Assembly (NCBI GenBank): GCA_965263035.1
Contig: OZ253580.1
Span: 2,656,001-2,720,000, forward strand
Reading direction: 5' to 3'
Origin: Acidobacteriota bacterium
GTDB taxonomy: Bacteria > Acidobacteriota > UBA6911 > RPQK01 > JAJDTT01
DNA: 64,000 bases
Positions within the stretch are counted from its first letter, which is position 1; every line of letters starts with the position of its first letter. The notes under the pieces are model-generated. The model worked only from the letters and a program-made list of their open reading frames with translations. It did no database searches and was not told the origin of the DNA. Below, piece after piece: positions 7,106 to 63,277 of this stretch. A program made the position numbers and the translations under genes.

Positions 7106-7121
7106 CTGCTCCGTCCTCCAG

Positions 7122-7279
7122 CAGTCCGTGGTGAAAGTCCCGCGAGCACCGAGACCGTTCCTGCGCCCGCCGGACAAGGCGCGATTCGGGAGCATACCGG
7201 GAGTATGTGACCGAATCGCAACGCAGTCCGCCGGGATGCAGGGACGGTCGAATGCCGTGACGACTTTTGCCACGGGCTG
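7122..7279 (-). mobile_element. MITE family A, copy 2
   Basis: Imperfect TIRs CAGTCCGTGGTGAAAGTC / GACTTTTGCCACGGGCTG with a perfect CCAG duplication (7118-7121, 7280-7283). Confidence 0.9.
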
Positions 7280-7416
7280 CCAGGGTGGTCGCCGGCGACC
7301 GGCCCCAACTGCCGGGAGAATGAATGCTGAAGCCCATTTTCGGTGCCGGCTGAGAATTGCATCCGGGCAAAGCTATCAACCGGCGCCGGAAGGACGCAAG
7401 CTCGTTAAAGATCCCC

Positions 7417-16764: not shown

Positions 16765-17778
16765 ATGGCTTCCGGCGAAACCATGACCTTCGCCCGGTTC
16801 ATGGAGCTTTGCCTCTATGCTCCGCAAGAAGGCTATTACCGGCGTGGATCCAAGGTCTTCGGTCCCGGCGGAGACTACTTCACCTCTCCCTATACCCACC
16901 CCCTGTTCTCCCAGATCCTGGGAGACGCTCTGGCCTGGCATCTGTCCTGTCTGGACGCGGATGGGCCTTTGGACCTCATCGAGTTGGGGGCCGGCGAGGG
17001 AATTCTGGGAAAGGGCGTGCTGGGTCGGCTGGAGAACCACCATCCCCGGATCTTCGCACGCGTCCGATACCAGGGCATGGAGATTGGAGATTCCTGCCTG
17101 CCGGAGCGAATCCATGGCGTGGTCTTCTCCAACGAACTCTTCGACGCGTTGCCGGTGCACCGGGTGCGGGTCTCTCAAACGGAATTAAAAGAGATTTTCG
17201 TCAGGTTGGGCGAGCCCATCACCGAGGTGGAGGGAGAACTCTCCGATCCGCGCATTCTGGAGTACATGCGACTCGGATTTCCCCGTTGGCGGGAGGGAGA
17301 CGTCTACGAGGCAAATCTGCGGATGGTGGAAATCCTGGAAGACCTGGACCGCCGCTTCCAACGAGGTTTTGTCCTGACCCTGGACTACGGATTCGAGGCG
17401 CCGGAATACGAGGCCATGGACCGGAGGGACGGTACGCTGCTCTGTTACCATCGCCACCGGGTCCATTCCGACCCCTATGTCAATCTGGGCCGCCAGGACC
17501 TGACCACCCATGTCAATTTTCGCGTGTTTCGCGAAACGGCCCGGCGGTTGGGTTGGACCAACCGACCGCTCCGAAGCCAGCGCCATTTCCTGATGAAATG
17601 GGGTCTGGAGACCCGGTTGCTGGAAGAGGAGAGGATGGGCATCCTGCAGGCGGAAAGATTCGAGGATCGGCTCGGAATCAAGGCCCTTCTCGCTCCCGGG
17701 GGAATCTCCGATACGCTCAAGATGCAGGTGCAGGCGGTCCGCCTCTCGCCGGCCGGCGGGTCCGGCAGTCCGTGGTGA
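16765..17778 (+). CDS. SAM-dependent methyltransferase, MidA/NDUFAF7 family
   Basis: GDYFTSP, ELGAGEG, SNELFDALP, LDYG and QDLTTHVNF motifs; the stop codon lies inside MITE copy 3. Confidence 0.9.
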   Translation: MASGETMTFARFMELCLYAPQEGYYRRGSKVFGPGGDYFTSPYTHPLFSQILGDALAWHLSCLDADGPLDLIELGAGEGILGKGVLGRLENHHPRIFARVRYQGMEIGDSCLPERIHGVVFSNELFDALPVHRVRVSQTELKEIFVRLGEPITEVEGELSDPRILEYMRLGFPRWREGDVYEANLRMVEILEDLDRRFQRGFVLTLDYGFEAPEYEAMDRRDGTLLCYHRHRVHSDPYVNLGRQDLTTHVNFRVFRETARRLGWTNRPLRSQRHFLMKWGLETRLLEEERMGILQAERFEDRLGIKALLAPGGISDTLKMQVQAVRLSPAGGSGSPW

Positions 17779-17916
17779 AAGTCCCGCGTAGGAGTCTGCG
17801 CCCGCCGGACAAGGCGCGGTGAGGGAGCATATTCGACCCTATGTGACCGAGGCGCAACGCAGTCCGCGCACGATGCAGACCCGGTCGAATGCCGCGACGA
17901 CTTTTGCCACGGGCTG
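17766..17916 (-). mobile_element. MITE family A, copy 3 (more diverged)
   Basis: Same TIRs; flanks CCGG/CCAG. Confidence 0.88.
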
Positions 17917-17947
17917 CCAGGGTCGGACCAAGCCGGATCTGATACAA

Positions 17948-29016: not shown

Positions 29017-29162
29017 GCTTCCTCCTTACATTGACGTGCGTTCCGGTCCTGGAACGTCCGGTTCGTCGATCCGCCGCTGTGAGCCCCGTTCAAAGCACCC
29101 GGCAAGGGAACGGGCGGGACTCGCAGACGTTCCTATGATGACACAGAAGGGGGATCCGTTCG

Positions 29163-29198
29163 CCGGTCGAATGGCGCGACGACTCTTGCCACGGGCTG
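29163..29198 (-). repeat. Orphan end of MITE family A
   Basis: CCGGTCGAATGGCGCGACGACTCTTGCCACGGGCTG followed by CTAG; matches the end of copy 3; no partner end found. Confidence 0.7.
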
Positions 29199-29243
29199 CT
29201 AGACTACCGGTGGCTGGCGACAAGCTTCTTCGGAATCGAAACG

Positions 29244-35239: not shown

Positions 35240-36091
35240 ATGGGGAGCCACCGGACTTACAACGGCGTTTCCATCCCTGAGTTCATGTACGGGACCGCCT
35301 GGAAGAAGGAGGAGACGACCCGTCTGGTCAAGCTGGCCGTCACCAGCGGCTTTACCGCCATCGACACCGCCAACCAGATCATCCACTACGACGAGGCCCG
35401 GGTGGGAGGCACCCTGCTCGATCTGAGCCGCCAGGGAATCGAACGGGAATCCCTTTTCCTCCAGACCAAGTTCACATCCGCCGGAGGCCAGGACCATCGG
35501 ACCCCCTACGATGCGTCCGCGGACATCACCACCCAGGTGGGGCAATCCTTCCATAGTTCCCTCCAGCATCTGCACACCGATTATCTGGATTCTTACGTCC
35601 TGCACGGCCCCTACTCGCGGATGGGACTGGGGGCGGAGGACTGGGAAGTCTGGGCGGCCATCGAAGGGATCTACAAGTCGGGCGGGGCTCGAGTGATCGG
35701 GGTCAGCAACGTCAGTGAAGAACAACTCGACGAGCTCTGCCGGCGAGCGGAAGTCAAGCCCATGGTGGTGCAGAACCGGTGTTTCGCCGTCCTGGGATGG
35801 GACTACAGGGTCCGGGAGATCTGCCGCTCCCACGGGATCGTCTACCAGGGCTTCTCGCTCCTGACGGCCAATCGACAGTTCCTGTTTCACGCCCGGATAC
35901 GGGAGATCGCCGGCCGTCTGGGGGTCGGCCCCGCCCAGATCGTCTTCCGGTTCGCCCTGGAAGTGGGGATACAGCCCCTCACGGGAACCAGCAACCGGGA
36001 CCACATGGTCGAGGATCTGGCGGTTCGATCGTTGCGGCTCTCTCGGGAAGAGACCACGTTCATCGAGACCATTGCCCTGAGTCGGCCCTGA
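35240..36091 (+). CDS. Aldo/keto reductase
   Basis: YGTAWK, IDTA, LQTKF, YLDSYVLH and IGVSN motifs. Confidence 0.9.
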   Translation: MGSHRTYNGVSIPEFMYGTAWKKEETTRLVKLAVTSGFTAIDTANQIIHYDEARVGGTLLDLSRQGIERESLFLQTKFTSAGGQDHRTPYDASADITTQVGQSFHSSLQHLHTDYLDSYVLHGPYSRMGLGAEDWEVWAAIEGIYKSGGARVIGVSNVSEEQLDELCRRAEVKPMVVQNRCFAVLGWDYRVREICRSHGIVYQGFSLLTANRQFLFHARIREIAGRLGVGPAQIVFRFALEVGIQPLTGTSNRDHMVEDLAVRSLRLSREETTFIETIALSRP

Positions 36092-36097
36092 CGCGGC

Positions 36098-37426
36098 TTA
36101 CGCACCTCTGGGGATCGCCCAGTGGCCCTTCCGGTAGCTGCGGGCAAGCAGGCCGTCGGCCTCTTCGTCGCCGGAGATCCTCTCCGCCTCCGCATCGAAT
36201 TGGAAGGATCGACCCACCCTCACGGCGATGTTGGCCAGGTGACAGAGCGAGGTGGACAGGTGCGCCGTTTCGGCATCGGCGGTGAGGGCGGACTGACCTC
36301 GAATCGCTTGCACCCAGGTACTGAAATTGCTCGTCATGTCCATTCTCGGCATGACACCCGGCCGTTTGTCGAGGCGCTTGTTCTCCTCGTCCCAGAGCTG
36401 GAACCGGCCCCGGCGGCTGAAGAGCATCTTGCCTCCGGTTCCCAGAAACTCGACGCCGCCGTCCACGTCGTAGGGATGGTTGGCAGACCAGATCCTCATC
36501 TCGAAGACCAACTGCCTGCGGTCCCCGACTCCTCCCTTGCCCGGATAGTCGAAAGTCGCGGTGACCGTGTCGGGGAACTCCTGGTCGTCGTCGAAGAAGA
36601 ACTTGCCGCCGGCCACGGCCACTTGGGTGGGATGGAGGTCCAGTCCCAGGCCCCAACGGGCCATGTCGAACTCGTGCACGCCGTCGTTCCCCAGATCGCC
36701 GGTGCCGAAGTCGTACCACCAGTGCCAGGAATAATGGTGCCGGTTCTTCTGGAAGGGGACCATCGGAGCCGGCCCCACCCAGAGATCGTAGTCGAACCCG
36801 TCCGGCGGAGAACTGGGCCGCTCGCGGCCGATGTTGCGCCGCTTCTGTACGTTCCAGGCCCGGGCGATGAGCACGTCTCCGATGACCCCGCCGTGCAGCA
36901 TTTGCACCGCCTCGACGAACCCCCGGCTGCTGCGGGCCTGGGTCCCGTGCTGGAGGACACGACCGGAACGCCGTGCGGCTTCCACCAGGAGTCGCCCTTC
37001 TCGGAGATTGTGGGAGCATGGCTTCTCCAGGTAGACGTGCTTGCCGGCATCCAACGCCATGATCGCCGCCGGGACATGCCAGTGGTCCGGAGTCGCAATG
37101 GTCACCGCGTCGACGGCGGGGTCGTCGAGAATCCTCCGCAGGTCGTCCACCGGCTCGGCGCCTCCCGCCTCGGTGGAGGCCTGAGCGCGCCGGTTCTCGT
37201 CCGGGTCGCACACGGCGACGATTTCGGCATTGACCCCTTGGGGAAACCGGCCGATATGGGAGCGCCGGCCCTGGCCTCCGCAACCGATGACCGCGTAGCG
37301 GATTCGGTCGTTGGCGCCGGCCGCGCCAGCCGGGACCGAGGTCAGAACCGGCGAAGTTGCGGCAAGTGTGGCCACGGCCCCGGACCCCTTCAAGAATTCC
37401 CGCCGGTTGACTTCACTTCTTGTCAT
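36098..37426 (-). CDS. Gfo/Idh/MocA family oxidoreductase, Tat-exported
   Basis: NRREFLK signal; ATPDHWH, HVYLEKP and GNDGVH motifs. Confidence 0.9.
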   Translation of the reverse strand: MTRSEVNRREFLKGSGAVATLAATSPVLTSVPAGAAGANDRIRYAVIGCGGQGRRSHIGRFPQGVNAEIVAVCDPDENRRAQASTEAGGAEPVDDLRRILDDPAVDAVTIATPDHWHVPAAIMALDAGKHVYLEKPCSHNLREGRLLVEAARRSGRVLQHGTQARSSRGFVEAVQMLHGGVIGDVLIARAWNVQKRRNIGRERPSSPPDGFDYDLWVGPAPMVPFQKNRHHYSWHWWYDFGTGDLGNDGVHEFDMARWGLGLDLHPTQVAVAGGKFFFDDDQEFPDTVTATFDYPGKGGVGDRRQLVFEMRIWSANHPYDVDGGVEFLGTGGKMLFSRRGRFQLWDEENKRLDKRPGVMPRMDMTSNFSTWVQAIRGQSALTADAETAHLSTSLCHLANIAVRVGRSFQFDAEAERISGDEEADGLLARSYRKGHWAIPRGA

Positions 37427-37899
37427 TGAGCCTCCTCTGCCCGCGTCAGCCGCTTGGCGCCGAGACCGAAGCGGCTCAACGGACTCTCAGGATTGTCTTC
37501 CTACTCTACAACCTGGGCCAAACGTTACCACGGCCGGCTCCGGCGAGGAGCGGAACACTTTTACTCGAGTTATTCCGCAGACGGGAGTCACGTTTCTTCC
37601 AATTTAATTAAGGACCACATGGTCAGCCACAGTCAGCTCGGAGCGAGGGCCAAAGTGGAAGACCCGACAGACGGAATCCGGCGCCCAATAGGAACGACTC
37701 CAAAGAACTTGAAAAGCCAGGATGTCCGGCTCGGGGCGAACGCCGACCGGCTCCCGGGGGGATTCGAACGCAAGCTGCATCCCGGCGGCCCGCGCGGAGG
37801 TTCGCCCAATCGGGGGACTCGAACCCACAGGGAGGGGAACCTCCTCAGGAACTTCGGTCCTGCGTGTCTGCCAATCTCGCCAAAGGAGGTGGACGGTCG

Positions 37900-38853
37900 A
37901 TGATCCCAAAACAACGTCACTGCGAACTCCAACTCAAACCCTTCGGTTGGACTGGCCGCGAGGCCGAGTGGATCGCCTTGGTCTGCCGGCATAGCGGCCT
38001 GTTCACCCATTCCCAATTCTGCACCTACTTGGGCGCGCGGCCCAATCGGGCGCGCCGGTTCGTCCGCTGCTTGCAGGATCGCCGCCAAGCGGTCGAAGTG
38101 AATCTGGACGGTCTCCCGGCTGCCGCCCGACCCTGCCGGATCTCGGGCAAAGCCATCTACCGCGCACTGGGCATCGAGAACGTGGGCCACCGCCGCGCCG
38201 CCTCCGCTCTTGTCCTGATGCGGCGACTGCTGTCTCTCGACTACATCCTGGAGCATCCGCGGCAGCCGTGGCTCACCTCTGAACAGGAAAAAGTCGCCGT
38301 CTTCGATGACTTCGACATACCCCGTCAGACCCTCCCTCGTCGTTACTACACCGGAAACAAGGCAGTCTGGGGCCGTTACTTTGCCCTGAAGCTCCCCATA
38401 TCCATCGCGCCCGAGACCATCACCTTCGTCTACGTGGATCCCGGCTACGACACCGACCGAAACCTGACGACCTGGGGATCGAGTCACGCGCCACTCTGGC
38501 GGGCCCTGCGCCGGAAGGGCCGCCGGATCCGGGTCGTCGCCGTCGCGCGTGGCGAAACCCGGTTGGGGCGGGCCAGCGAGGTCTTGAGCCGCTGGACTCA
38601 AGGATACTGGCCGACGGGCCAACAGCCCCTCACGCCCGACGAGGAGCAGGAGATAGAAGAAATTCGCCTTGCTTTCTTTCGTGGAGACTGGCCGGCATTG
38701 GATCGTTGGGGAGGGCCCCAAGCGGCACTCTTCCACCAGCGCGACCTGAGGCGCCGGCCGTCGTTCGAGGATTCCACATCCGGATTCCGGATTGATCGGG
38801 CGGACGCCTGGCGCTCGCTGCGGTTGTCGTTCCCGAGGGCAACCCTCAGCTAG
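37900..38853 (+). CDS. Hypothetical protein, possibly replication-relaxation-like (wHTH plus nuclease-like domain)
   Basis: 317-aa ORF with a strong AAGGAGGT SD; the family assignment is my inference from the FGWTGREAEW...SGLF..SQF and FVYVD patterns. Confidence 0.6.
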   Translation: MIPKQRHCELQLKPFGWTGREAEWIALVCRHSGLFTHSQFCTYLGARPNRARRFVRCLQDRRQAVEVNLDGLPAAARPCRISGKAIYRALGIENVGHRRAASALVLMRRLLSLDYILEHPRQPWLTSEQEKVAVFDDFDIPRQTLPRRYYTGNKAVWGRYFALKLPISIAPETITFVYVDPGYDTDRNLTTWGSSHAPLWRALRRKGRRIRVVAVARGETRLGRASEVLSRWTQGYWPTGQQPLTPDEEQEIEEIRLAFFRGDWPALDRWGGPQAALFHQRDLRRRPSFEDSTSGFRIDRADAWRSLRLSFPRATLS

Positions 38854-38959
38854 TTCGCGTTGCGGCAGTCGATTCCGCAGTCCCGGGTCAGATTCATTTG
38901 GTTGTCTCTGATAGTACAAGGGAAACCCGGGTCCCAAAGCCTGAGGCAGGACTACATTC

Positions 38960-39502
38960 CTAGAATACATAGCCGACTCCGACCGTGGAACGGAACATGG
39001 GAACCAGGCCGATGCGGACTTCCGGAGCCACGAAGAAACTCTTACCCAGGAACAACCGGACGCCCAGCCCCCCAGTGAAGTTGATATTTCCTTGGTGGTC
39101 CCACTCGAACTCGGGCAGCGTGGCGTCGAAATGATGCCTCGGGTTGGGAAGCCGTGCCCGATACAGAGTGAATCCGACCCCGACGACCAGATAGGGACTG
39201 ATGCGTCGGTGCGGCGAAAACTCATACTCGATGACGGGAGTAACCAGCAGAGCTTGCGTTTTGTAGATTTGGTATTTCCCGTACATGTCAGCGTGCAAAA
39301 CTTCCACGCCGCCGCGGACGTGTGAACCTGCGGGACCGGTGATGGTAGCGCCCCCTAACCGGGCATGGGGAGACACATCATCCAGCCCGAGCATGTACCC
39401 CAACTGCCCTCTCAGGTAGAGCTTGCGTTTTTCCCCGGACACAGGCTGCAGAAGGAATGATGAGACAGTGACGAAAATCAGAATCACCCGTGCAGATGGC
39501 AT
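38960..39502 (-). CDS. Outer membrane beta-barrel protein
   Basis: Signal peptide, alternating strands (ISPYLVVGVGF, FTGGLGVRLF), C-terminal GVGYVF. Confidence 0.8.
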   Translation of the reverse strand: MPSARVILIFVTVSSFLLQPVSGEKRKLYLRGQLGYMLGLDDVSPHARLGGATITGPAGSHVRGGVEVLHADMYGKYQIYKTQALLVTPVIEYEFSPHRRISPYLVVGVGFTLYRARLPNPRHHFDATLPEFEWDHQGNINFTGGLGVRLFLGKSFFVAPEVRIGLVPMFRSTVGVGYVF

Positions 39503-39789
39503 AGGCCGCTCCTCTCAGTCGTTCGCAAACGGCGTTTTGTAAAGCCCACGTATATGGAAAACCGAAGATTGATTCGTGCCCGATGCGGAACTGGGGAGCG
39601 ATGAAAAATCGGTCATTGACCCAGACTTAGACTCCCATTCCCCATCCCAGGCCTCCCCAAGCTATTCCGGAGCTTTTGATCCTCCCTCGTAACGACAGCT
39701 GCCAGGAAATGCGATTTCTTCGCCTGAATTGGCTCACCGAGGCGGTTCAGATACGGATCACCCGGACGGTTTGAGTATTGTCACCAGCT

Positions 39790-40600
39790 TCGAGAACAAC
39801 ACCGTCGAGGGAAAGATGTTGGACCTTCTCCACACCAAACGGCAGTCGATCCGCGACGCGCTCGAGGACGACGCGGTCTTCAACGTGGTCGGTGAGGTGT
39901 TGCCAGCCCAGCGGGTCGAGACGGTCCTTCGGGATTACTACGCTCGAAAGCTGGGAGACGAAGACCTGGAAGAGAGGCTCCTCCGGAACGCGGACGAAGG
40001 CCGGTTCCAGAAGATCTGCCAGACCGCGCTGGAGGGACTCGCGTCCAAGCAGCTGAATCCGGACATGCTCGTCAAGAGACGGGCAAGGGCGCAGGAGCGG
40101 CGGATAGTGCCGAAAACCACCGCGCACGCTTCCTGAAAGATGCCGCGGCGCAGGCGGACTTCTCGCTGAAGCCGGTGCGTCGGCTGCCGCACACCTTCCA
40201 GCCAGGAAAAACTCCGCTCCTGGTGATGGACTATGAGCTCGGGCCCGATTGGCGGCTTGCCGAAGTTTCCCCACGGTACCCGCGCCTGTCGACCGATCGT
40301 GACCCGGCCACGCGCCACAACCTGGGATGGGTCACGCCCCGGGCACGAGATGTGAAGCGGATCCGCGTACATGTCGAGCTGGCGTTGAGCGAAGTCCTGC
40401 AGCGGACAGACAACGAGATCGGCCGGACTCACGAAGACACCGAGAATGGTGTGCCCGGAACGAAAGGACGGCTGGCCCAGGCGGAAGCCCGTCACGCCGA
40501 GGTCACTGCGCCTCGCCATCGGCGCCGGGGCGAGTTGGAGAAACAGGCCGCAATCACCCTTCAAGGCGTGGAGAGGCTTGCGAGTGCGCTGATTCTGCCA
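39790..40600 (+). pseudogene. Internal fragment of a SNF2-type helicase (defence-associated type)
   Basis: NTVEGKML..L..K...IR..L...VFNVVGEV and RAQERRIVP; frameshift near 40125; apparent internal deletion after WVTP; truncated at the 40601 repeat. Confidence 0.65.
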
Positions 40601-40633
40601 CGGGCGCGAGAACGGGACTGTCCCCATCACGCG
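40601..40633 (+). repeat. 32-bp junction repeat, copy 1 (variant)
   Basis: CGGGCGCGAGAACGGGACTGTCCCCATCACGCG. Confidence 0.85.
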
Positions 40634-40889
40634 CTTCGTAGGGTCCGTCCTCTCCCCAACGAAAACAGATCCGCCACTGCGCATTGATTCGGATGCCGTA
40701 CTGGCCGGCCCGTTTGCCTCGCAGCGCTTCCAGGCAGTTGCTGGGTAGCCCCGCCAGGTCCCGAAGGGACTCCGCATTGTCCAACACGATGAGACGTCGC
40801 ACGGCCTGATCCGCGAATCCCTGAAACGCCGCCACTCGACGGCCCTCGAAGAAGCGCCGAGTATTTCGGTCGCTGAAGCTTCGGATTAT
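40634..40889 (-). pseudogene. higB: HigB (RelE/ParE superfamily) toxin, start codon ATA, C-terminus truncated
   Basis: (ATA)IRSFSDRNTRRFFEG...LPSNCLEALRGKRAGQYGIRINAQWRICFRW..GPYE then the repeat; the usual terminal IVDYH is missing. Confidence 0.8.
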
Positions 40890-41043
40890 AGAGTGTCAGG
40901 GTAACCGGTTTTATGATAGCCGTAAAGCGTAACGAACGTAGCGGTGCCGAACTCGGGAGAGGGTGTAGTAGAATTCCACCGCATGATTCCCCGCAATCGC
41001 CGGCCCGGCAGTCTCCCAACTTGGTTTGTTGCACTCGCTGCTC

Positions 41044-41075
41044 CAGGCCGAGAACGAGACTGTCCCCATCTCGCG
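41044..41075 (+). repeat. 32-bp junction repeat, copy 2
   Basis: CAGGCCGAGAACGAGACTGTCCCCATCTCGCG. Confidence 0.9.
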
Positions 41076-41135
41076 TGACCTTCCGCTTCAAGGACGGCGC
41101 GGCGGTCGATGTGGACTACGTGGACTTATCACTGA
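41076..41135 (+). pseudogene. higB: 3-prime remnant of a second higB toxin
   Basis: [18 protein letters not shown](+1)YH-stop directly upstream of higA. Confidence 0.75.
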
Positions 41136-41149
41136 GGAGCAGACCGATC

Positions 41150-41437
41150 ATGACTATGCACAACCCGCCGCATCCGGGCGGCATCGTGAAGCGGCAGTGC
41201 CTCGAACCGCTGGGTCTGACCGTAACCCGGGCCGCCGAGGGTTTGGGCGTCACCCGGCAGGCGCTTTCGGAGTTGGTGAACGGGCGAACGGGAATCTCGG
41301 TAGAGATGGCGATACGGCTGTCGAAGGCCTTCGGTTCGACGCGCGAGACCTGGCTGGGGATGCAGATGGCCTACGATCTCTGGCAGGCCCGCGGCCGCGC
41401 CGAAGAGATCGCGGTGGAACGCTTTGTGGCGGCGTGA
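41150..41437 (+). CDS. higA: HigA family antitoxin
   Basis: MHNPPHPGG...[40 protein letters not shown]...WLGMQ; GAGGAG SD. Confidence 0.92.
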
Positions 41438-41630
41438 TTGAGTCACTTGCCCTTGGGAGCATCGTCGTCTCCGCAAGGCTGGCGACCGTTGTGGCCATCT
41501 CGATTTGTCAGGTTCTCCCTCCAATGGCTCAATACCTTCTTCGTACTTCTCACAAACACCTGCTACACCCAGCTCCCGAAGCGTCCCCAAGTCCTGTTCA
41601 GAAGTTTCGTGACAACTGGCGGTGCTGAGC

Positions 41631-42095
41631 ATGAACGACCTGCAGGTACGGACTGAACGCATCCGGATCGACGCACCGGTCGGTTTGGTCTGGGAGGTTC
41701 TGACAGACGTTGAGAGATACGGTGAGTGGAATCCGTTCACGCCGCAGGCACGGACCGATTTCAGGGTCGGTTCGCACGCTCATCTGCTGGTCAGGATGGG
41801 GCCGGCGGAGGTGCGAATCACCGAGACCGTCTCCGCGTTCGAAGCACCCCGGCTCATTGCTTGGGGAAAGGCATTCGGAGCGCGCTGGCTCCTGGCTGCA
41901 ATGCGGGAGCAGCATCTGGAACCCGCGAGCGAGACGATCTGCTTTTACCACAACACGGACCGATTGACCGGCGTGCTTGCGCCGCTGGTGTTGCTTTGTT
42001 TTGGCGGTTTTATGCGTGCCGGTTTCACCGATGTCGGCGAAGGGTTGAAGCGTCGATCGGAGGCGCTGTACAAGAGCTCGAAGCCGCGTGGGTGA
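41631..42095 (+). CDS. SRPBCC domain protein
   Basis: IRIDAPVGLVWEVLTDVERYGEWNPF...GLKRRSE. Confidence 0.85.
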   Translation: MNDLQVRTERIRIDAPVGLVWEVLTDVERYGEWNPFTPQARTDFRVGSHAHLLVRMGPAEVRITETVSAFEAPRLIAWGKAFGARWLLAAMREQHLEPASETICFYHNTDRLTGVLAPLVLLCFGGFMRAGFTDVGEGLKRRSEALYKSSKPRG

Positions 42096-42192
42096 CGATC
42101 TTCGAGGGAAACGATCGAGTGATCGATGCGCTTGGCGACTTGCAGGCCGCCCTCAAACGCATCGTCAAGTAGGACACCTTCGGAAGTGAAAT

Positions 42193-42269
42193 TGGTGGAG
42201 ACGATGGGATTCGAACCCACGACCTCCTGAGTGCGATTCAGGCGCTCTTCCGAGCTGAGCTACGTCCCC
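42193..42269 (-). tRNA. tRNA-Ala (CGC)
   Basis: GGGGACGTAGCTCAGCTCGGAAGAGCGCCTGAATCGCACTCAGGAGGTCGTGGGTTCGAATCCCATCGTCTCCACCA. Confidence 0.96.
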
Positions 42270-42301
42270 ACCTGAGAGGGGCCTATCTTAACAGAGAACC
42301 T

Positions 42302-42471
42302 CTACAGGAAGTCCGACGCGCAGGGGTAACCGGGAAGCGGTTGGGCCTGGAGGACGGCCCGGACCACTGCCCGGGCGGTGACTTGGGCCGCAAGAGCCCC
42401 GACCAAACCCAGGTCCTGCCCTCGTACCGATTTGGTGGAAAGTGCGAACAGGGTATCGCCGTCCGACGGCA
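42302..42471 (-). pseudogene. Diverged duplicate of the last ~56 codons of the P1/DmpA peptidase gene (43631-43800)
   Basis: Manual alignment gives about 17 mismatches in 170 nt, no indels, mostly synonymous; ends exactly at the 42472 repeat. Confidence 0.9.
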
Positions 42472-42503
42472 CAGGCCGAGAACGAGACTGTCCCCATCTC
42501 GCG
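42472..42503 (+). repeat. 32-bp junction repeat, copy 3
   Basis: Identical to 41044-41075. Confidence 0.9.
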
Positions 42504-42605
42504 CTCCATCGACCAAGTCATCTAGTCCCATGGCCCTCATGCGACGTTGCGGCGGGTGATGGCTTTGCGCAAGCTTTCCAGAAAACCTTCGAGCTTCGCT
42601 TGGTT

Positions 42606-42809
42606 TCATAGCTCAGAATCCTTGATCTGAGCCATCTTCATCAGATGCCTCTGCAAACCACGTTTCAGAGTGCCGCCGTGTACCGGGACCGAGATACGAG
42701 CGGGAATCCCCATCTTCACGTAGATGTGGTGGCTGCGTCTGACTCGTTTCAACTGCCAACCTCGCGACTCGAGCAACCGGCACAATCGCTTGCCGCTGAC
42801 GGCCTTCAC
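42606..42809 (-). CDS. hicA: HicA family toxin
   Basis: GTG start overlapping the hicB stop; KAVSGKRLCRLLESRGWQLKRVRRSHHIY...ISVPVHG..LKRGL. Confidence 0.88.
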   Translation of the reverse strand: MKAVSGKRLCRLLESRGWQLKRVRRSHHIYVKMGIPARISVPVHGGTLKRGLQRHLMKMAQIKDSEL

Positions 42810-43122
42810 ACGGCAATCTCGATGATTTTGTCTGTCTCGGAGACAGGAATATCCTGGATCTCGACAGATAGACACCCCTCGACGGCTTCATAGAGATTAC
42901 CTAGGAGGCTGTCCGAGAACTCGAAAAATCATAGTTTTTTAAAACTTAACCCTTTATAAATCAATAGTTTACAAACAATACTTTTTGAAAATAGTCTATT
43001 CTCGGACAGCCTCCTAGCAGATCTTCAAACGAGTCTCCCTGAGTCGCACACCCTGGGATGGACGGCACTTCCGCCCAGTACCCGCCCTCATCTGCTTCAT
43101 GGATCACGACTTTCAGCTTCAT
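42806..43122 (-). pseudogene. hicB: HicB family antitoxin interrupted by MITE B
   Basis: Removing 42905-43017 restores [67 protein letters not shown] (67 aa). Confidence 0.92.
42905..43013. mobile_element. MITE family B (109 bp, AT-rich core)
   Basis: Perfect 15-bp TIR GAGGCTGTCCGAGAA / TTCTCGGACAGCCTC with CTAG duplication (42901-42904, 43014-43017). Confidence 0.93.
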
Positions 43123-43630
43123 GGTTCCTCCTTGTGTTCCGCACCAGCTCACTGTCAGTCTAGTTTATCTTCCCGCCGGTAAGTACCACAGCTTTGGAAG
43201 TTCATCCCGGATCCCGAACCAAGACGTAATCCGCATCCCGGTGGAGGATCTCGGGTGCCCCTCATAGACCGGCGGAGACTCTCTCGGAGCGGAGCATCTC
43301 TTTTGTGGTCTTTCTCCGGGCATTCCCGCAGGGATATTTGGGACGGGAGCGACCCTCCCATGGAGTGCTGCTCAGATGTAAGTTGCGCAGCACTGCCGTG
43401 CCGATCATGGAGGCGAAAAAGGGGGTCGCTCCCGTCCAGCTCCGCTCTCCCCCGATCGGCACGGCGGGGCCATTCTCACTCCCCTCCAATGGCCTCCCCT
43501 TCCGTGTGTCGGCGGCGGGGAACGATAAGCACACTTCAATCAGGGACCCGATCCCCCACAAGAGATGAGGGGCTGAATTCCTCGTACGCTGTGGCCTTCC
43601 GCTGGTCATTCCGCCGAAAAAGGAGAATCC

Positions 43631-44632
43631 CTACAGGAAGTCCGACGCGCAGGGGTAACCGGGAAGCGGCTCCGCCTGGAGGACCGCTCGGACCACGGCT
43701 CTGGCGGTGACGTGGGCCGCAAGAGCCCCCACCAATCCCAGGTCCTGCCCTGGAACCGATTCGGTGGAAAGGGCGAACAGGGTATCCCCGTCCGCCGGCA
43801 TGTGGACGGGACGGATGGTCCGGGCCAACCCGTCGTGGGCCATCTGAGCGATCTTGGTCAGGCCCGCCTTGTCGAACCCGGCGTTGGTGGCGACCACGCC
43901 CAAGGTCGTGTTCTCGCCCTCGCCCGGGCGCCAGGCTGGAAGTTCCCGTTCCTTCAGGACCGTCATGGTGTCGGCGAATCCGCGCCCGCCCGCGCCGCGG
44001 ACTCCCGCCAGGATTCTGCCCGTTTCCGGATCGATGACGTCGCCGACGGCATTGACCGCTACCAGAGCCGCCACCACCACAGGTCCGACCTGCACGGCCG
44101 CCGAACCCAGGCCCCCCTTCATGGCGCGTTCGTGACCCAGTATCTTGCCCAAGGTGGCCCCGGCTCCCACGCCGGCGTTGCCTTCGGGGACCGGCCCCGT
44201 CCCGGCGTCTCGGCAGGCCCGGTGTCCCAATTCGGGACCCGGGCGGATCGAGGCGTCTCCCAGCGCCAAATCGAAGAGAATGGCCGACGGCACGATGGGG
44301 ACTCTGGCCACCGACGTCCGATAGCCCACCCCCCGTTCCTCCAGGAAACGGACCACTCCGGAAGCCGCGTCCAGACCGAAAGCGCTGCCGCCGGAGAGCA
44401 CCAGGGCGTGGATGCGCTTCACCGAACGCACCGGGTCCAGCAGGGCGGTTTCACGGGTGCCGGGAGCGGAGCCGCGAATGTCCACTCCGGCCATCACTTC
44501 CCGTTCCGGCAGGACGACGGTGACCCCCGTGGGCCGCCGGGGGTCGACGGCATGCCCGACCCGTATGCCTACGAGGTCGGTCAGGCCGCCCTCGTAGGCG
44601 GCGGATCCTGATGGATACGTTTCGCTGCTCAT
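43631..44632 (-). CDS. P1 family peptidase (DmpA/S58)
   Basis: GIRVGH, RGSAPGTRET, LSGGSAFGL, ENTTLGVVATN and DGDTLF motifs. Confidence 0.9.
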   Translation of the reverse strand: MSSETYPSGSAAYEGGLTDLVGIRVGHAVDPRRPTGVTVVLPEREVMAGVDIRGSAPGTRETALLDPVRSVKRIHALVLSGGSAFGLDAASGVVRFLEERGVGYRTSVARVPIVPSAILFDLALGDASIRPGPELGHRACRDAGTGPVPEGNAGVGAGATLGKILGHERAMKGGLGSAAVQVGPVVVAALVAVNAVGDVIDPETGRILAGVRGAGGRGFADTMTVLKERELPAWRPGEGENTTLGVVATNAGFDKAGLTKIAQMAHDGLARTIRPVHMPADGDTLFALSTESVPGQDLGLVGALAAHVTARAVVRAVLQAEPLPGYPCASDFL

Positions 44633-44659
44633 GCCCGAAGTGGGTGAATGCGGGTCCTG

Positions 44660-45223
44660 AAAAGCAGGGCTGTAAGCCGAATTCTGTACCCTGGCCGCAA
44701 GGCCGGGGCGGCGATCATTCCTCTAGGGGCCGGGTTGCCCCGGCCCTCGGGCGGCCTACCCGCTCCGCCTCCGCCCTGCCCGGGGGCCGGCGAATGAGCC
44801 GGGCCAACTCGTACGGAGCCTATTTGGCCTTGCACCGCGTGGGGTTTACCGTGCCTTCGATGTCACCATCAAAGCGGTGGGCTCTTACCCCACCATTTCA
44901 CCCTTACCCGCAGTCCCGACGACGGAACCGAAGGCGGTATCTTTTCTGTGGCACTTTCCGTAGGGTTACCCCCCCTTCCCGTTAGGAAGCACGCTGCCCT
45001 GAGGTGTTCGGACTTTCCTCCGCCCGGCGTTAGCAGCCCGTGGCAAAAGTCGTCACGGCATTCGACCGTCCCTGCATCGTGCGCGGACTGCGTTGCGACT
45101 CGGTCACATACTCCCGGTATGCTCCCTCATCGTGCCTGGTCCGGCGGGCGCAGAACCGGTCTCGGTGCTCGCGGGACTTTCACCACGGACTGCTAGCCGG
45201 AAGGCGATCGCCCACCCTGCTTC
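44660..45223 (-). ncRNA. rnpB: RNase P RNA, bacterial type A, carrying a MITE insertion in P3
   Basis: Minus strand has GAGGAAAGTCCG, GGAAAGTGCCACAGAAA, GGTAAGGGTGAAA, GGTAAACCCCA and ACAGAATTCGGCTTAC; P1 (AAGCAGGG/CCCTGCTT) and P2 (GGCGATC/GATCGCC) pair across the insert. Confidence 0.95.
45034..45192 (+). mobile_element. MITE family A, copy 4 (inside rnpB)
   Basis: CAGCCCGTGGCAAAAGTC...GACTTTCACCACGGACTG, flanks TTAG/CTAG. Confidence 0.92.
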
Positions 45224-45325
45224 TCAGGCCGACGACATTCTATCACCGGAAGCTCAGGTGGAACCGATTTCACGCGGTCGCCCCGACGTGCCCGCCGGTA
45301 CATATCCCGCGAGACGAGCAAGCGC

Positions 45326-46213
45326 TTACCGAGAGCGAATCAGGCCCCGGCCCACGGCGCCCGCTTCCAGTCCGATGAGCTCGCCGTAGACCCGGCCGAA
45401 CTTGACCTGGGCCTCGAACTTGACGGGAACTCGAAGCGGGTCCCGGGAGTACCAGACCTGCAGCGTCCTCCCCTGGGAGAGGATTCCCCCCTCGACTCGG
45501 AGCCGAACGGTGTCGAAAGCCCCGATCCGGAGTTCGACTTTCTCCCGCTCCTCCACCCGGACCAGAAGCTCCTTGAACTTGCCGCGGTCGGCCAGGTGCG
45601 CACGGTACCGGCTCGCGTCCTCCAGCCGCTGGAGCCTGACCACGTAGACGGCCGAGATCAGGTCGGTGACCGGCCCCGGAATCCCATCTGAGGTGCGGTT
45701 GTGAAGCTCCCGCGGCGGATCCCTGGACACATCCAGATCGCGGTAGAGCGCGATGTTCCTGCGGTAGTCGAAGACGGAGAGCAGATCGCGCCTGCGTTTC
45801 CCTTCGCGGTGCTTTCGGAAGATCCGATAGGAATGGAAATTCCGGGCGTCGACAATGGACTCGAAACGATTTCGCACCGAAATCTTGGCGACTTTCGCCA
45901 GCCTGCCTGCCGAGACGGCCTCCATGGTAATGGTCCAGGCCGGCCTCTTGCGATACCGGGAACGCTTCACGGTGAAGGCCAACTCTCCGGCCTTGAAAGC
46001 CGGAGAGGCGAACAGGGGCTTCCAGTTGACCTCGTATCGCAGCTTCTCTCCGGCCTGGAAGGGAGCTCTGTAGGGAGTGCTTCCATCCAGTAGAGGTCGC
46101 GCCGTCTCGGACCCGGCCGGAAGCGAGAAACAAAAAAAAGCGGTCGTGAGTGGGACGAGAACGGCCCGCAAACGGCTTACCCACTGCCAGGGGGCGAGCA
46201 TTCCGCGCCTCAT
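45326..46213 (-). CDS. DUF3108 domain protein
   Basis: PFQAGEKLRYEVNW...DLISAVY...WYSRDPLRVPVK pattern; signal peptide. Confidence 0.75.
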   Translation of the reverse strand: MRRGMLAPWQWVSRLRAVLVPLTTAFFCFSLPAGSETARPLLDGSTPYRAPFQAGEKLRYEVNWKPLFASPAFKAGELAFTVKRSRYRKRPAWTITMEAVSAGRLAKVAKISVRNRFESIVDARNFHSYRIFRKHREGKRRRDLLSVFDYRRNIALYRDLDVSRDPPRELHNRTSDGIPGPVTDLISAVYVVRLQRLEDASRYRAHLADRGKFKELLVRVEEREKVELRIGAFDTVRLRVEGGILSQGRTLQVWYSRDPLRVPVKFEAQVKFGRVYGELIGLEAGAVGRGLIRSR

Positions 46214-63134: not shown

Positions 63135-63180
63135 GACGGCGAGGTCTGCCGTGTGCGGGCCGGTTTACGTCCGGGTTCAA

Positions 63181-63277
63181 CAGCCCGTGGCAAAAGTCAT
63201 CACGGCATTCGACCGTTCCTGCATCCCGGCGGGCGCAGGAACGGTCTCGGTGCTCGCGGGACTTTCACCACGGACTG
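63181..63277 (+). mobile_element. MITE family A, copy 5 (97-bp short form) between rpsH and rplF
   Basis: Same TIRs; lacks the 61-nt central segment bounded by CCGGCGG in copy 2. Confidence 0.9.

Follow-up and report, generated by a model that had tools for sequence, protein, structure and literature searches.

A clustered repeat related to the ends of an HUH transposase gene lies at joints between truncated genes in an Acidobacteriota genome

Three motif copies between unrelated genes

We analysed a 64,000-nt stretch of an Acidobacteriota bacterium, here called the window (GTDB lineage Bacteria; Acidobacteriota; UBA6911; RPQK01; JAJDTT01; assembly GCA_965263035.1, contig OZ253580.1, positions 2,656,001 to 2,720,000 of the forward strand), in which three copies of a 32-bp motif stand at junctions between pieces of unrelated genes (Table 1). 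A first-pass annotation, made from the letters alone, had described the motif as a hairpin and as the scar of a one-ended recombination process that builds or prunes a toxin–antitoxin-rich islet. Copies 2 and 3 are letter-for-letter alike, as that annotation stated, and such a match arose in 0 of 100 shuffles. Copy 1 is an 81% identical variant that begins at 40602, one base after the start first given for it, and all three copies lie in the same orientation, as reported. The exact 32-mer has no further site in the 6.2-Mb single-contig genome, even with five mismatches allowed, which extends to the whole genome the observation that it occurs nowhere else in the window.

All six flanks had been taken for truncated reading frames; five are genes cut at the motif, and the sixth is intergenic. 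At junction 1, the helicase fragment recognized at first pass matches a homolog in L108 as far as residue 572 of its 717-aa homologous part, ending ~145 aa short and without the NOV_C domain (residues 590–685 of the L108 homolog). The neighbouring higB gene was rightly said to lack its last codons: seven are missing by comparison with seven intact homologs, which match exactly from 40634 onward. Its start codon is unlike that of the L063 homolog. At junction 2, the signal-peptide-like start 'MIPRNRR...', one of two short starts originally marked as weaker calls, proved to be a real gene start, comprising ~19 codons of a gene ~182 aa long in L064, and its homologs in L063 and L064 run on without a motif. 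The 3' tail of a second higB on the other side of copy 2 was also correctly identified, as judged from intact homologs in L061 and L062. At junction 3, the duplicated 3' end reported for a peptidase belongs to a peptidase S58 gene and is present as a displaced copy A and a resident copy B (178 bp, 89% identical), so the earlier statement that the junctions lack target duplication is wrong there. The second short start, MGLDDLVDG, is intergenic DNA rather than a gene; the true frame at that place is a gene remnant with its stop at 42537, 33 nt from the motif.

Two frames read across joints. An accidental 174-aa frame (within 40913–41437) crosses copy 2 into higA, and the broken higB frame runs across copy 1 into the helicase remnant; joints of this kind can create fusion frames.

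We compared this locus, together with the transposase sites described below, among sister genomes. Seven of eight sister genomes carry between one and six motif copies at the locus (22 in total), and no opposite-strand copy was seen at the locus in these genomes. The tRNA and peptidase genes are adjacent in G001, G002, G004, and G005, which retain the unduplicated state, and a 1329-bp insertion with copy 3 at its left joint is common to G000, G003, G006, and G007 together with the 178-bp duplication. Copy 3 itself is present in G003, G006, and G007 and absent from G001, G002, G004, G005, and G008. The displaced A copies of the four species differ at 1–7 of 178 positions and the resident B copies at 4–17 of 178; because the A copies are less divergent, the insertion block appears to have passed between species with a crossover at the resident peptidase gene, and copy B is likely to mark the side of homologous recombination. 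In G008 the tRNA gene is duplicated over 89 bp, and a degenerate motif stands 18 nt beyond the first of the two copies; by its sequence this is an independent event of the same shape as junction 3. A possible third duplication, in G001 (~22-bp overlap, 42083–42104), was not recovered on re-analysis and is left uncounted. G003 has a 94-bp deletion that begins at the 3' foot of copy 3, and sister genomes swap the DNA that follows a shared motif. Because sister genomes carry other intact cargo at the same locus, including genes for a P450, a sulfotransferase, a hydrolase, and an M78 peptidase with DUF4411 (Pfam matches in 13 of 46 cargo frames), the islet is not specifically one of toxin–antitoxin genes, contrary to the initial description. 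G005, the only sister genome without the motif here, instead encodes a 1610-aa protein with leucine-rich repeats and Ig-like domains (L058:2124–6953).

Assembly chimeras at a short repeat could in principle produce joints of this kind, and short-read contigs do break at the 32-mer: contigs end exactly there in all four public runs, and among the contigs listed from these runs none bridges the 3' side of junction 2. The backing for that side is indirect, in that contigs of all four runs branch at the 32-mer and an outgoing contig starts at 42474 in each, which from the word length would be a second exit from the repeat. The other evidence speaks against chimeras. Junction 3 is spanned at 98–99% identity in G006 and G007, two independent sister assemblies from other species; junction 1 is fully spanned by contigs in two of the four runs; and contigs of 15.8 kb and 19.5 kb from two runs cover junction 1 together with the 5' side of junction 2. 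We consider it very unlikely that the junctions are assembly products.

Table 1. Features at and beside the three motif copies (window coordinates)
Feature	Coordinates	Strand	Remarks
SNF2-type helicase remnant, frameshifted; NOV_C domain missing	39729–40601	+	cut at 5' side of copy 1
Motif copy 1 (variant)	40602–40633	+	joints on both sides; apparently related 5' join in G004 (85% over 39 nt)
higB toxin gene without last 7 codons	40634–40889	-	PF05015
First ~19 codons of signal-peptide-like gene 'MIPRNRR...'	40983–41043	+	cut at 5' side of copy 2
Motif copy 2	41044–41075	+	identical to copy 3
Second higB 3' tail (41076–41136), then intact higA (41150–41437)	41076–41437	+	TIGR02607 (higA)
SRPBCC gene (41634–42095, +) and tRNA-Ala(CGC) (42193–42269, -)	41634–42269		conserved part of locus
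Displaced copy A of peptidase S58 3' end	42294–42471	-	cut at 5' side of copy 3
Motif copy 3	42472–42503	+	left joint of 1329-bp insertion
Cargo: gene remnant (stop 42537), hicA (42606–42809), hicB (42806–43122, split), further fragments	42504–43622	-	
Intact peptidase S58 gene (43631–44632), plus copy B (43623–43800)	43623–44632	-	

Several other features lie nearby. A 113-bp miniature element unrelated to the motif (42900–43012; about a dozen genome copies at 95–99% identity) splits hicB, and is missing, with a 5-bp overlap, from three of the four public runs and from sister genomes; it is therefore polymorphic. The remnant near 42537–42605 belongs to a small-protein family with a shared C-terminal peptide, present in several copies per genome (L101–L106) and often found beside toxin–antitoxin genes or variable DNA. 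Just left of the variable stretch, a 329-aa frame (37864–38853) without a Pfam or NCBIfam match is found in several sister genomes and has paralogs elsewhere. A second dispersed repeat family of 50–160 bp occurs in both orientations at 1051–1214, 7117–7286, 17761–17926, 29154–29205, 45030–45192, and 63177–63277. Within 36000–46000, only tRNA and RNase P reached Rfam thresholds.

A repeat family linked to an HUH transposase gene

The window 32-mer is, by sequence, a local variant of a genomic family with consensus GAGAAGGTGACTGTCCCCTTCTC and 99 copies at a weight-matrix score of at least 19; the reversed genome contained none at 12 or above. These copies are clustered (67 of 98 gaps are 10 kb or shorter, compared to a random mean of 15 and maximum of 27), 56 of 65 neighbouring pairs are co-oriented, and members of one cluster resemble each other more than they do members of other clusters (0/2000 permutations). 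The strict motif pattern was found in all eight other genomes of the genus and in none of six from the sister genus; elsewhere in the order, 3 of 16 genomes had a single copy each. A phylum-wide sample of 301 genomes gave 7 with a match, 5 of which belong to this genus. Partial echoes of the 3' half of the motif follow it in 20 of 99 copies and precede it in 9 (background 3.6%).

As first described, the consensus is imperfectly palindromic, but the hairpin proposed from it is weak. The 32-mer folds no better than its shuffles (z = -0.7; variant, z = -1.9), no arm covariation was found across 98 distinct family members, and pairing between the arms is at the level of shuffles for 12 of 14 positions, with uncorrected p-values of 0.03 and 0.045 at the other two. 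On the weak folding and lack of covariation we rejected a conserved hairpin; because the arms do not covary and the 32-mer folds like shuffled sequence, the motif looks sequence-defined. The family also has no conserved foot of the GTAG type, the feature looked for in REP/REPIN sequences that go with RAYT groups 2–3.

The first-pass annotation had related the motif to the GGGG(A/T)CAG-type repeats of HUH genes and proposed a search for an HUH/Y1 or tyrosine-recombinase gene flanked by it. Both the relation and the first part of the search held up: four genes for a 311-aa HUH (Y1) protein lie outside the window, each between outward-facing variants of the motif, and the flanking repeats have the form GGGG(A/T)(C/G)A(C/G). 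As to tyrosine recombinases, both integrase genes next to a copy proved to be truncated by the motif. RAYT-like matches occur in 9/9 genomes of the genus. Among the 54 long-gene copies fetched for counting, a subset of all copies listed, an outward-facing related repeat lies within 500 nt upstream in 52 and downstream in 44, compared to 2.5% of random windows; 44 have it at both ends and 52 at one end at least. Measured against the nearest gene-flanking repeat, copies 2 and 3 have 2 mismatches in 23 positions and copy 1 has 3. In the sister genus, a diverged enzyme (42–55% identity) is flanked at 5/5 loci by a different repeat variant, defined after inspection of those five loci, and this variant is clustered as well (55 matches in 5/5 genomes). 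By sequence comparison, including a shared core, the window motif belongs to the repeat family of the HUH transposase gene.

The 311-aa protein matches PF01797 (Y1_Tnp) at 29.1 bits (cut-off 23), and its NF047646 score stays under that model's cut-off. Residues H63, H65, Y162, and N166 are at least 90% conserved in 92 sequences, and an alignment-based structure model (predicted local distance difference test score, pLDDT, 92.5) has TnpA-REP 4ER8 as its best fold match (E = 8.7e-7). In the predicted fold, the HUH strand is followed by a helical insertion. The conserved C-terminal domain belongs to no named family; no Pfam helix-turn-helix (HTH) model (Bac_DnaA_C, HTH_23, HTH_28) matched it, with E values of up to 1 admitted. 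We set aside two shorter RAYT genes (PF01797; L001, L002), since the repeats beside them are of another family; the L002 gene adjoins an apparent group II intron sequence. On the outer sides of the transposase ends (L020 and others), runs of short imperfect tandem repeats combine part of the repeat with flank, which suggests, from sequence, repeated cutting and re-priming.

Direct duplications of host DNA, 43–264 bp long and 70–98% identical, abut 16 of 52 transposase copies with both ends, compared to 2 of 150 swapped-flank controls; of the 13 duplicated segments that come from sister genomes, 8 occur just once in this genome. With insertion sites grouped by mapping onto this genome, 44 of 54 sister transposase copies fall at syntenic places, at ~14 recurring sites, and the joints differ in each occupant of a recurring site (7 of 44 show overlap and the others a gap). 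For 43 of 53 transposase copies, with four interrupted ones excluded, the nearest other copy belongs to the same genome, suggesting either recent moves into the same small set of sites or gene conversion. The recurring sites on G000:C1 include 0.80, 1.56, 1.83, 2.61, 3.00, 3.12, 4.55, 5.20, 5.63, and 5.96 Mb; the same chromosomal sites are occupied across species, yet transposase sequence groups mostly by genome. A near-identical transposase pair in L198 and L199, located in a smaller genome and 84% identical in protein sequence to the transposase of this genome, has no syntenic site here, and horizontal transfer of these copies is possible.

Joints across the genome and how they may have formed

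Breakpoints of homology gather beside the motif throughout the genome. On the 5' side, homology to other loci ends 8–25 nt from the core in 25 of 99 copies (2.8% of control windows), and on the 3' side it begins 14–35 nt from the core in 19 of 99 (3.2% of control windows). Together with the truncated flanks, these breakpoints bear out the early claim to the extent that the motif marks joints between unrelated DNA. No homolog in this genome spans a copy or joins its two flanks, and no empty site was found for any of the 99 copies; simple insertion was rejected on the absence of flank-joining homologs within this genome. The idea of a one-ended scar fared less well: because joints lie on both sides and at variable distances, the motif is not a single fixed end. 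Among flanks repeated directly within 40 kb, 12 of 15 on the 5' side have their second copy downstream, and 10 of 13 on the 3' side have it upstream. For copies 1–3, the 5' joint is in each case ~14–15 nt ahead of the GACTG core, and copies 2 and 3 begin at one and the same base although their 5' flanks differ, which suggests a defined cut.

We favour, at a probability of about 0.55, the reading that the copies are free-standing sites of a TIRYT-type HUH (Y1) transposase, encoded outside the window, that would make one imprecise join, by analogy with TnpA-REP, with homologous recombination resolving the other end, as has been proposed for ISCR elements. Sequence comparison establishes the joints with their positions, the duplications, and the connection to the transposase gene; that the HUH enzyme makes the joints, and that a single-stranded or circular intermediate and homologous recombination take part, we infer. 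The candidate enzyme would recognise the ~23-bp site and, working on single-stranded DNA, cut and rejoin the strand close by on either side, at no fixed distance. The site, with whatever it carries, would be joined to DNA without obvious sequence preference, truncating genes, and the other end would be resolved by homologous recombination in neighbouring conserved DNA. The intermediate might be a circle that had taken some flank along, or incoming linear DNA used directly, and the product would have the order A–motif–cargo–A', as at junction 3. There, a piece made of motif, cargo, and the 3' end of the peptidase gene, with the motif's 5' side closed or joined, would have recombined into the peptidase gene, giving tRNA–A–motif–cargo–A'–gene and leaving the peptidase intact and the sites stacked one way. 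Repeated rounds at a locus would build stacks of same-orientation sites and a hypervariable spot that gains and loses genes and passes between species.

Several observations weigh against this reading. The duplication geometry was seen in 22 of 28 local cases (p = 0.004), which are not all independent, some sharing one duplicated segment; judged from sequence, this geometry is how a duplication joint would look for either direction of the event, and neither direction nor enzyme follows from it. The consensus of 95 free-standing copies is unlike both transposase-end consensuses, and most of these copies differ from the nearest end at 3–4 of 23 positions; the true enzyme could therefore be a relative absent from this genome. 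Abutting duplications are missing at 36 of 52 transposase copies, and the identity of only 70–98% between duplicated copies fits transfer between lineages but also old age. By eye, no C|T or other shared target was seen in the mapped joints, and replichore bias was not significant (9 of 27 clusters on the leading strand, p = 0.12, with the origin placed roughly by GC skew). Many occupied transposase sites show deletions relative to this genome.

Such deletions would be expected under the main rival, which we regard as unlikely, namely that the copies are transposon debris: leftover ends or miniature elements would have inserted, promoted adjacent deletions, decayed, and been kept where tolerated, with no capture or recombination step. 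The apparent movement or conversion of the gene, with its nearest copy usually in the same genome, and the G003 deletion from the 3' foot of copy 3 fit this account too. Deletion would explain the truncations but not the co-orientation of neighbouring copies, which do not face inward as in miniature elements, and deletion alone gives no 178-bp or 89-bp duplications. Transposase-element interior was found beside none of 95 free-standing copies on either flank, and the greater likeness of copies within clusters also speaks against debris.

Rather improbable, in our judgement, is a fragile site at which the repeat or a bound protein nicks DNA or stalls replication and template-switch repair makes the joints, the transposase at most nicking. 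The 3'-half echoes around the motif, the short tandem partial copies at transposase ends, and the imprecision of the joints are what template switching might leave; the motif's structure, however, is weak and without covariation, and the near-constant position of the three 5' joints in the window, two at the same base with different flanks, is at odds with it. An integron-like site, in which 7-bp arms and an asymmetric core serve a tyrosine recombinase that shuffles cassettes, is largely refuted and very improbable. The imperfect palindrome and co-orientation would suit it, as would the 27 PF00589 matches in the genome and the exchange of DNA after a shared motif among sister genomes. Against it, breakpoints lie outside the site at variable distance, unbroken homologs carry no half-site, the two integrase genes abutting a copy are cut by the motif, and the one integrase tested scored far under the cut-off of the integron-integrase model.

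The transposase reading that we favour could be extended into an integrase-free route of capture and homing, in which a Y1 HUH enzyme acting in trans on 23-bp sites, with host recombination, would produce heritable hypervariable loci with their own site variants, and the same route would move both cargo and the transposase gene to recurring sites, also across species. We offer this extension tentatively and lean against it as a whole. If true, genes would be gained, lost, and truncated by a route that is neither that of integrons nor that of ordinary transposons. The host role of RAYT-like enzymes is described as an open question in the accessible part of PMC5581495, and this locus, with its candidate enzyme, its 23-bp site, joints mapped to either side of that site, and a duplication shape (variable, 40–260 bp) shared by the enzyme's own gene, makes it a testable one.

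Comparison with known systems

Published systems are compared here through the accessible parts of the cited accounts. Integrons and clusters of attC sites lacking integron integrases (CALIN) are set apart by breakpoints that lie outside the site and inside genes, and the paired inverted ends, short fixed target duplication, and empty site of miniature inverted-repeat transposable elements were not found among the family copies. Inverted REPIN doublets in intergenic DNA with contiguous flanks were likewise not seen, given the co-orientation of neighbours and the lack of an empty site for the 99 copies in this genome.

In ISCR/IS91 elements, an HUH enzyme mobilises adjacent DNA, and integration combined with homologous recombination duplicates a conserved flank (PMC3575428, PMC8386438). 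The proposed single join with homologous recombination and the duplicated conserved flank are similar here, whereas the Y1 fold, the similar inverted ends in place of oriIS and terIS, and a free-standing 23-bp site in place of a whole element are not; the 311-aa enzyme and its ends thus fall outside the IS91/ISCR definition, no genome search having been aimed at the IS91 family. For TnpA-REP of subclass 2.1 found with prochlorosin genes, diversifying recombination has been proposed, with no strong evidence for or against causation in the text available (10.1101/2020.03.09.984088). Host-gene recombination by a long RAYT is proposed in both cases, for one gene family there and for general cargo here.

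TnpA-REP cuts single-stranded DNA to either side of REP, at positions spread over more than 400 nt and with low specificity, and carries out strand transfer in vitro; for the E. coli TnpA-REP/REP/BIME system, circles and local tandem amplification have been proposed (PMC3333891). The window family shares with it the predicted enzyme fold and joints on both sides of the repeat at a distance. Unlike E. coli REP/BIME, it has no GTAG foot, hairpin covariation, or C|T rule, and its joints involve kilobases of genes rather than only a repeat cluster. Among TnpA-Y1 enzymes, subclass 2.3 has a median length of 325 aa, core insertions, a long C-terminal tail, and, in the account available, no REP-like structure that could be recognised at its flanks; in subclass 2.1 an HTH stands at the C-terminus, and REPtrons do not appear to move as a unit (10.1101/279083). 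The 311-aa enzyme resembles subclasses 2.1 and 2.3 as a long Y1 protein with HUH and Y---N motifs and several copies per genome, and its possible likeness to subclass 2.3 is one of length (311 aa compared to a median of 325) and of the insertion after the HUH strand. It differs from subclass 2.3 in its flanking repeats and from subclass 2.1 in having no Pfam HTH, and its copies, unlike REPtrons, look recently spread or converted within genomes.

The closest description is that of TIRtrons, in which a RAYT-like (TIRYT) gene is flanked by inverted repeats with GGGGWSAS and accompanied by dispersed repeat families, with an Acidobacteria group mentioned (PMC3733652). Our literature search found no biochemistry of the long TIRYT types and no test of an enzyme binding or cleaving the repeat; nor did it find free-standing sites of the terminal-inverted-repeat (TIR) type as gene joints, or long, variable TIRtron duplications, with subscription papers and key supplements lying outside the search. 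The element class is already in print as TIRtron/TIRYT and is barely studied. The likeness extends to the RAYT-like HUH gene, the GGGGWSAS inverted repeats (here GGGGACAG), and the dispersed repeat family. TIRtrons are described as single, dimeric, or grouped repeats, whereas the copies here form co-oriented clusters kilobases apart, and the broken-gene joints and long duplications seen here do not appear in the accessible part of the TIRtron account (PMC3733652).

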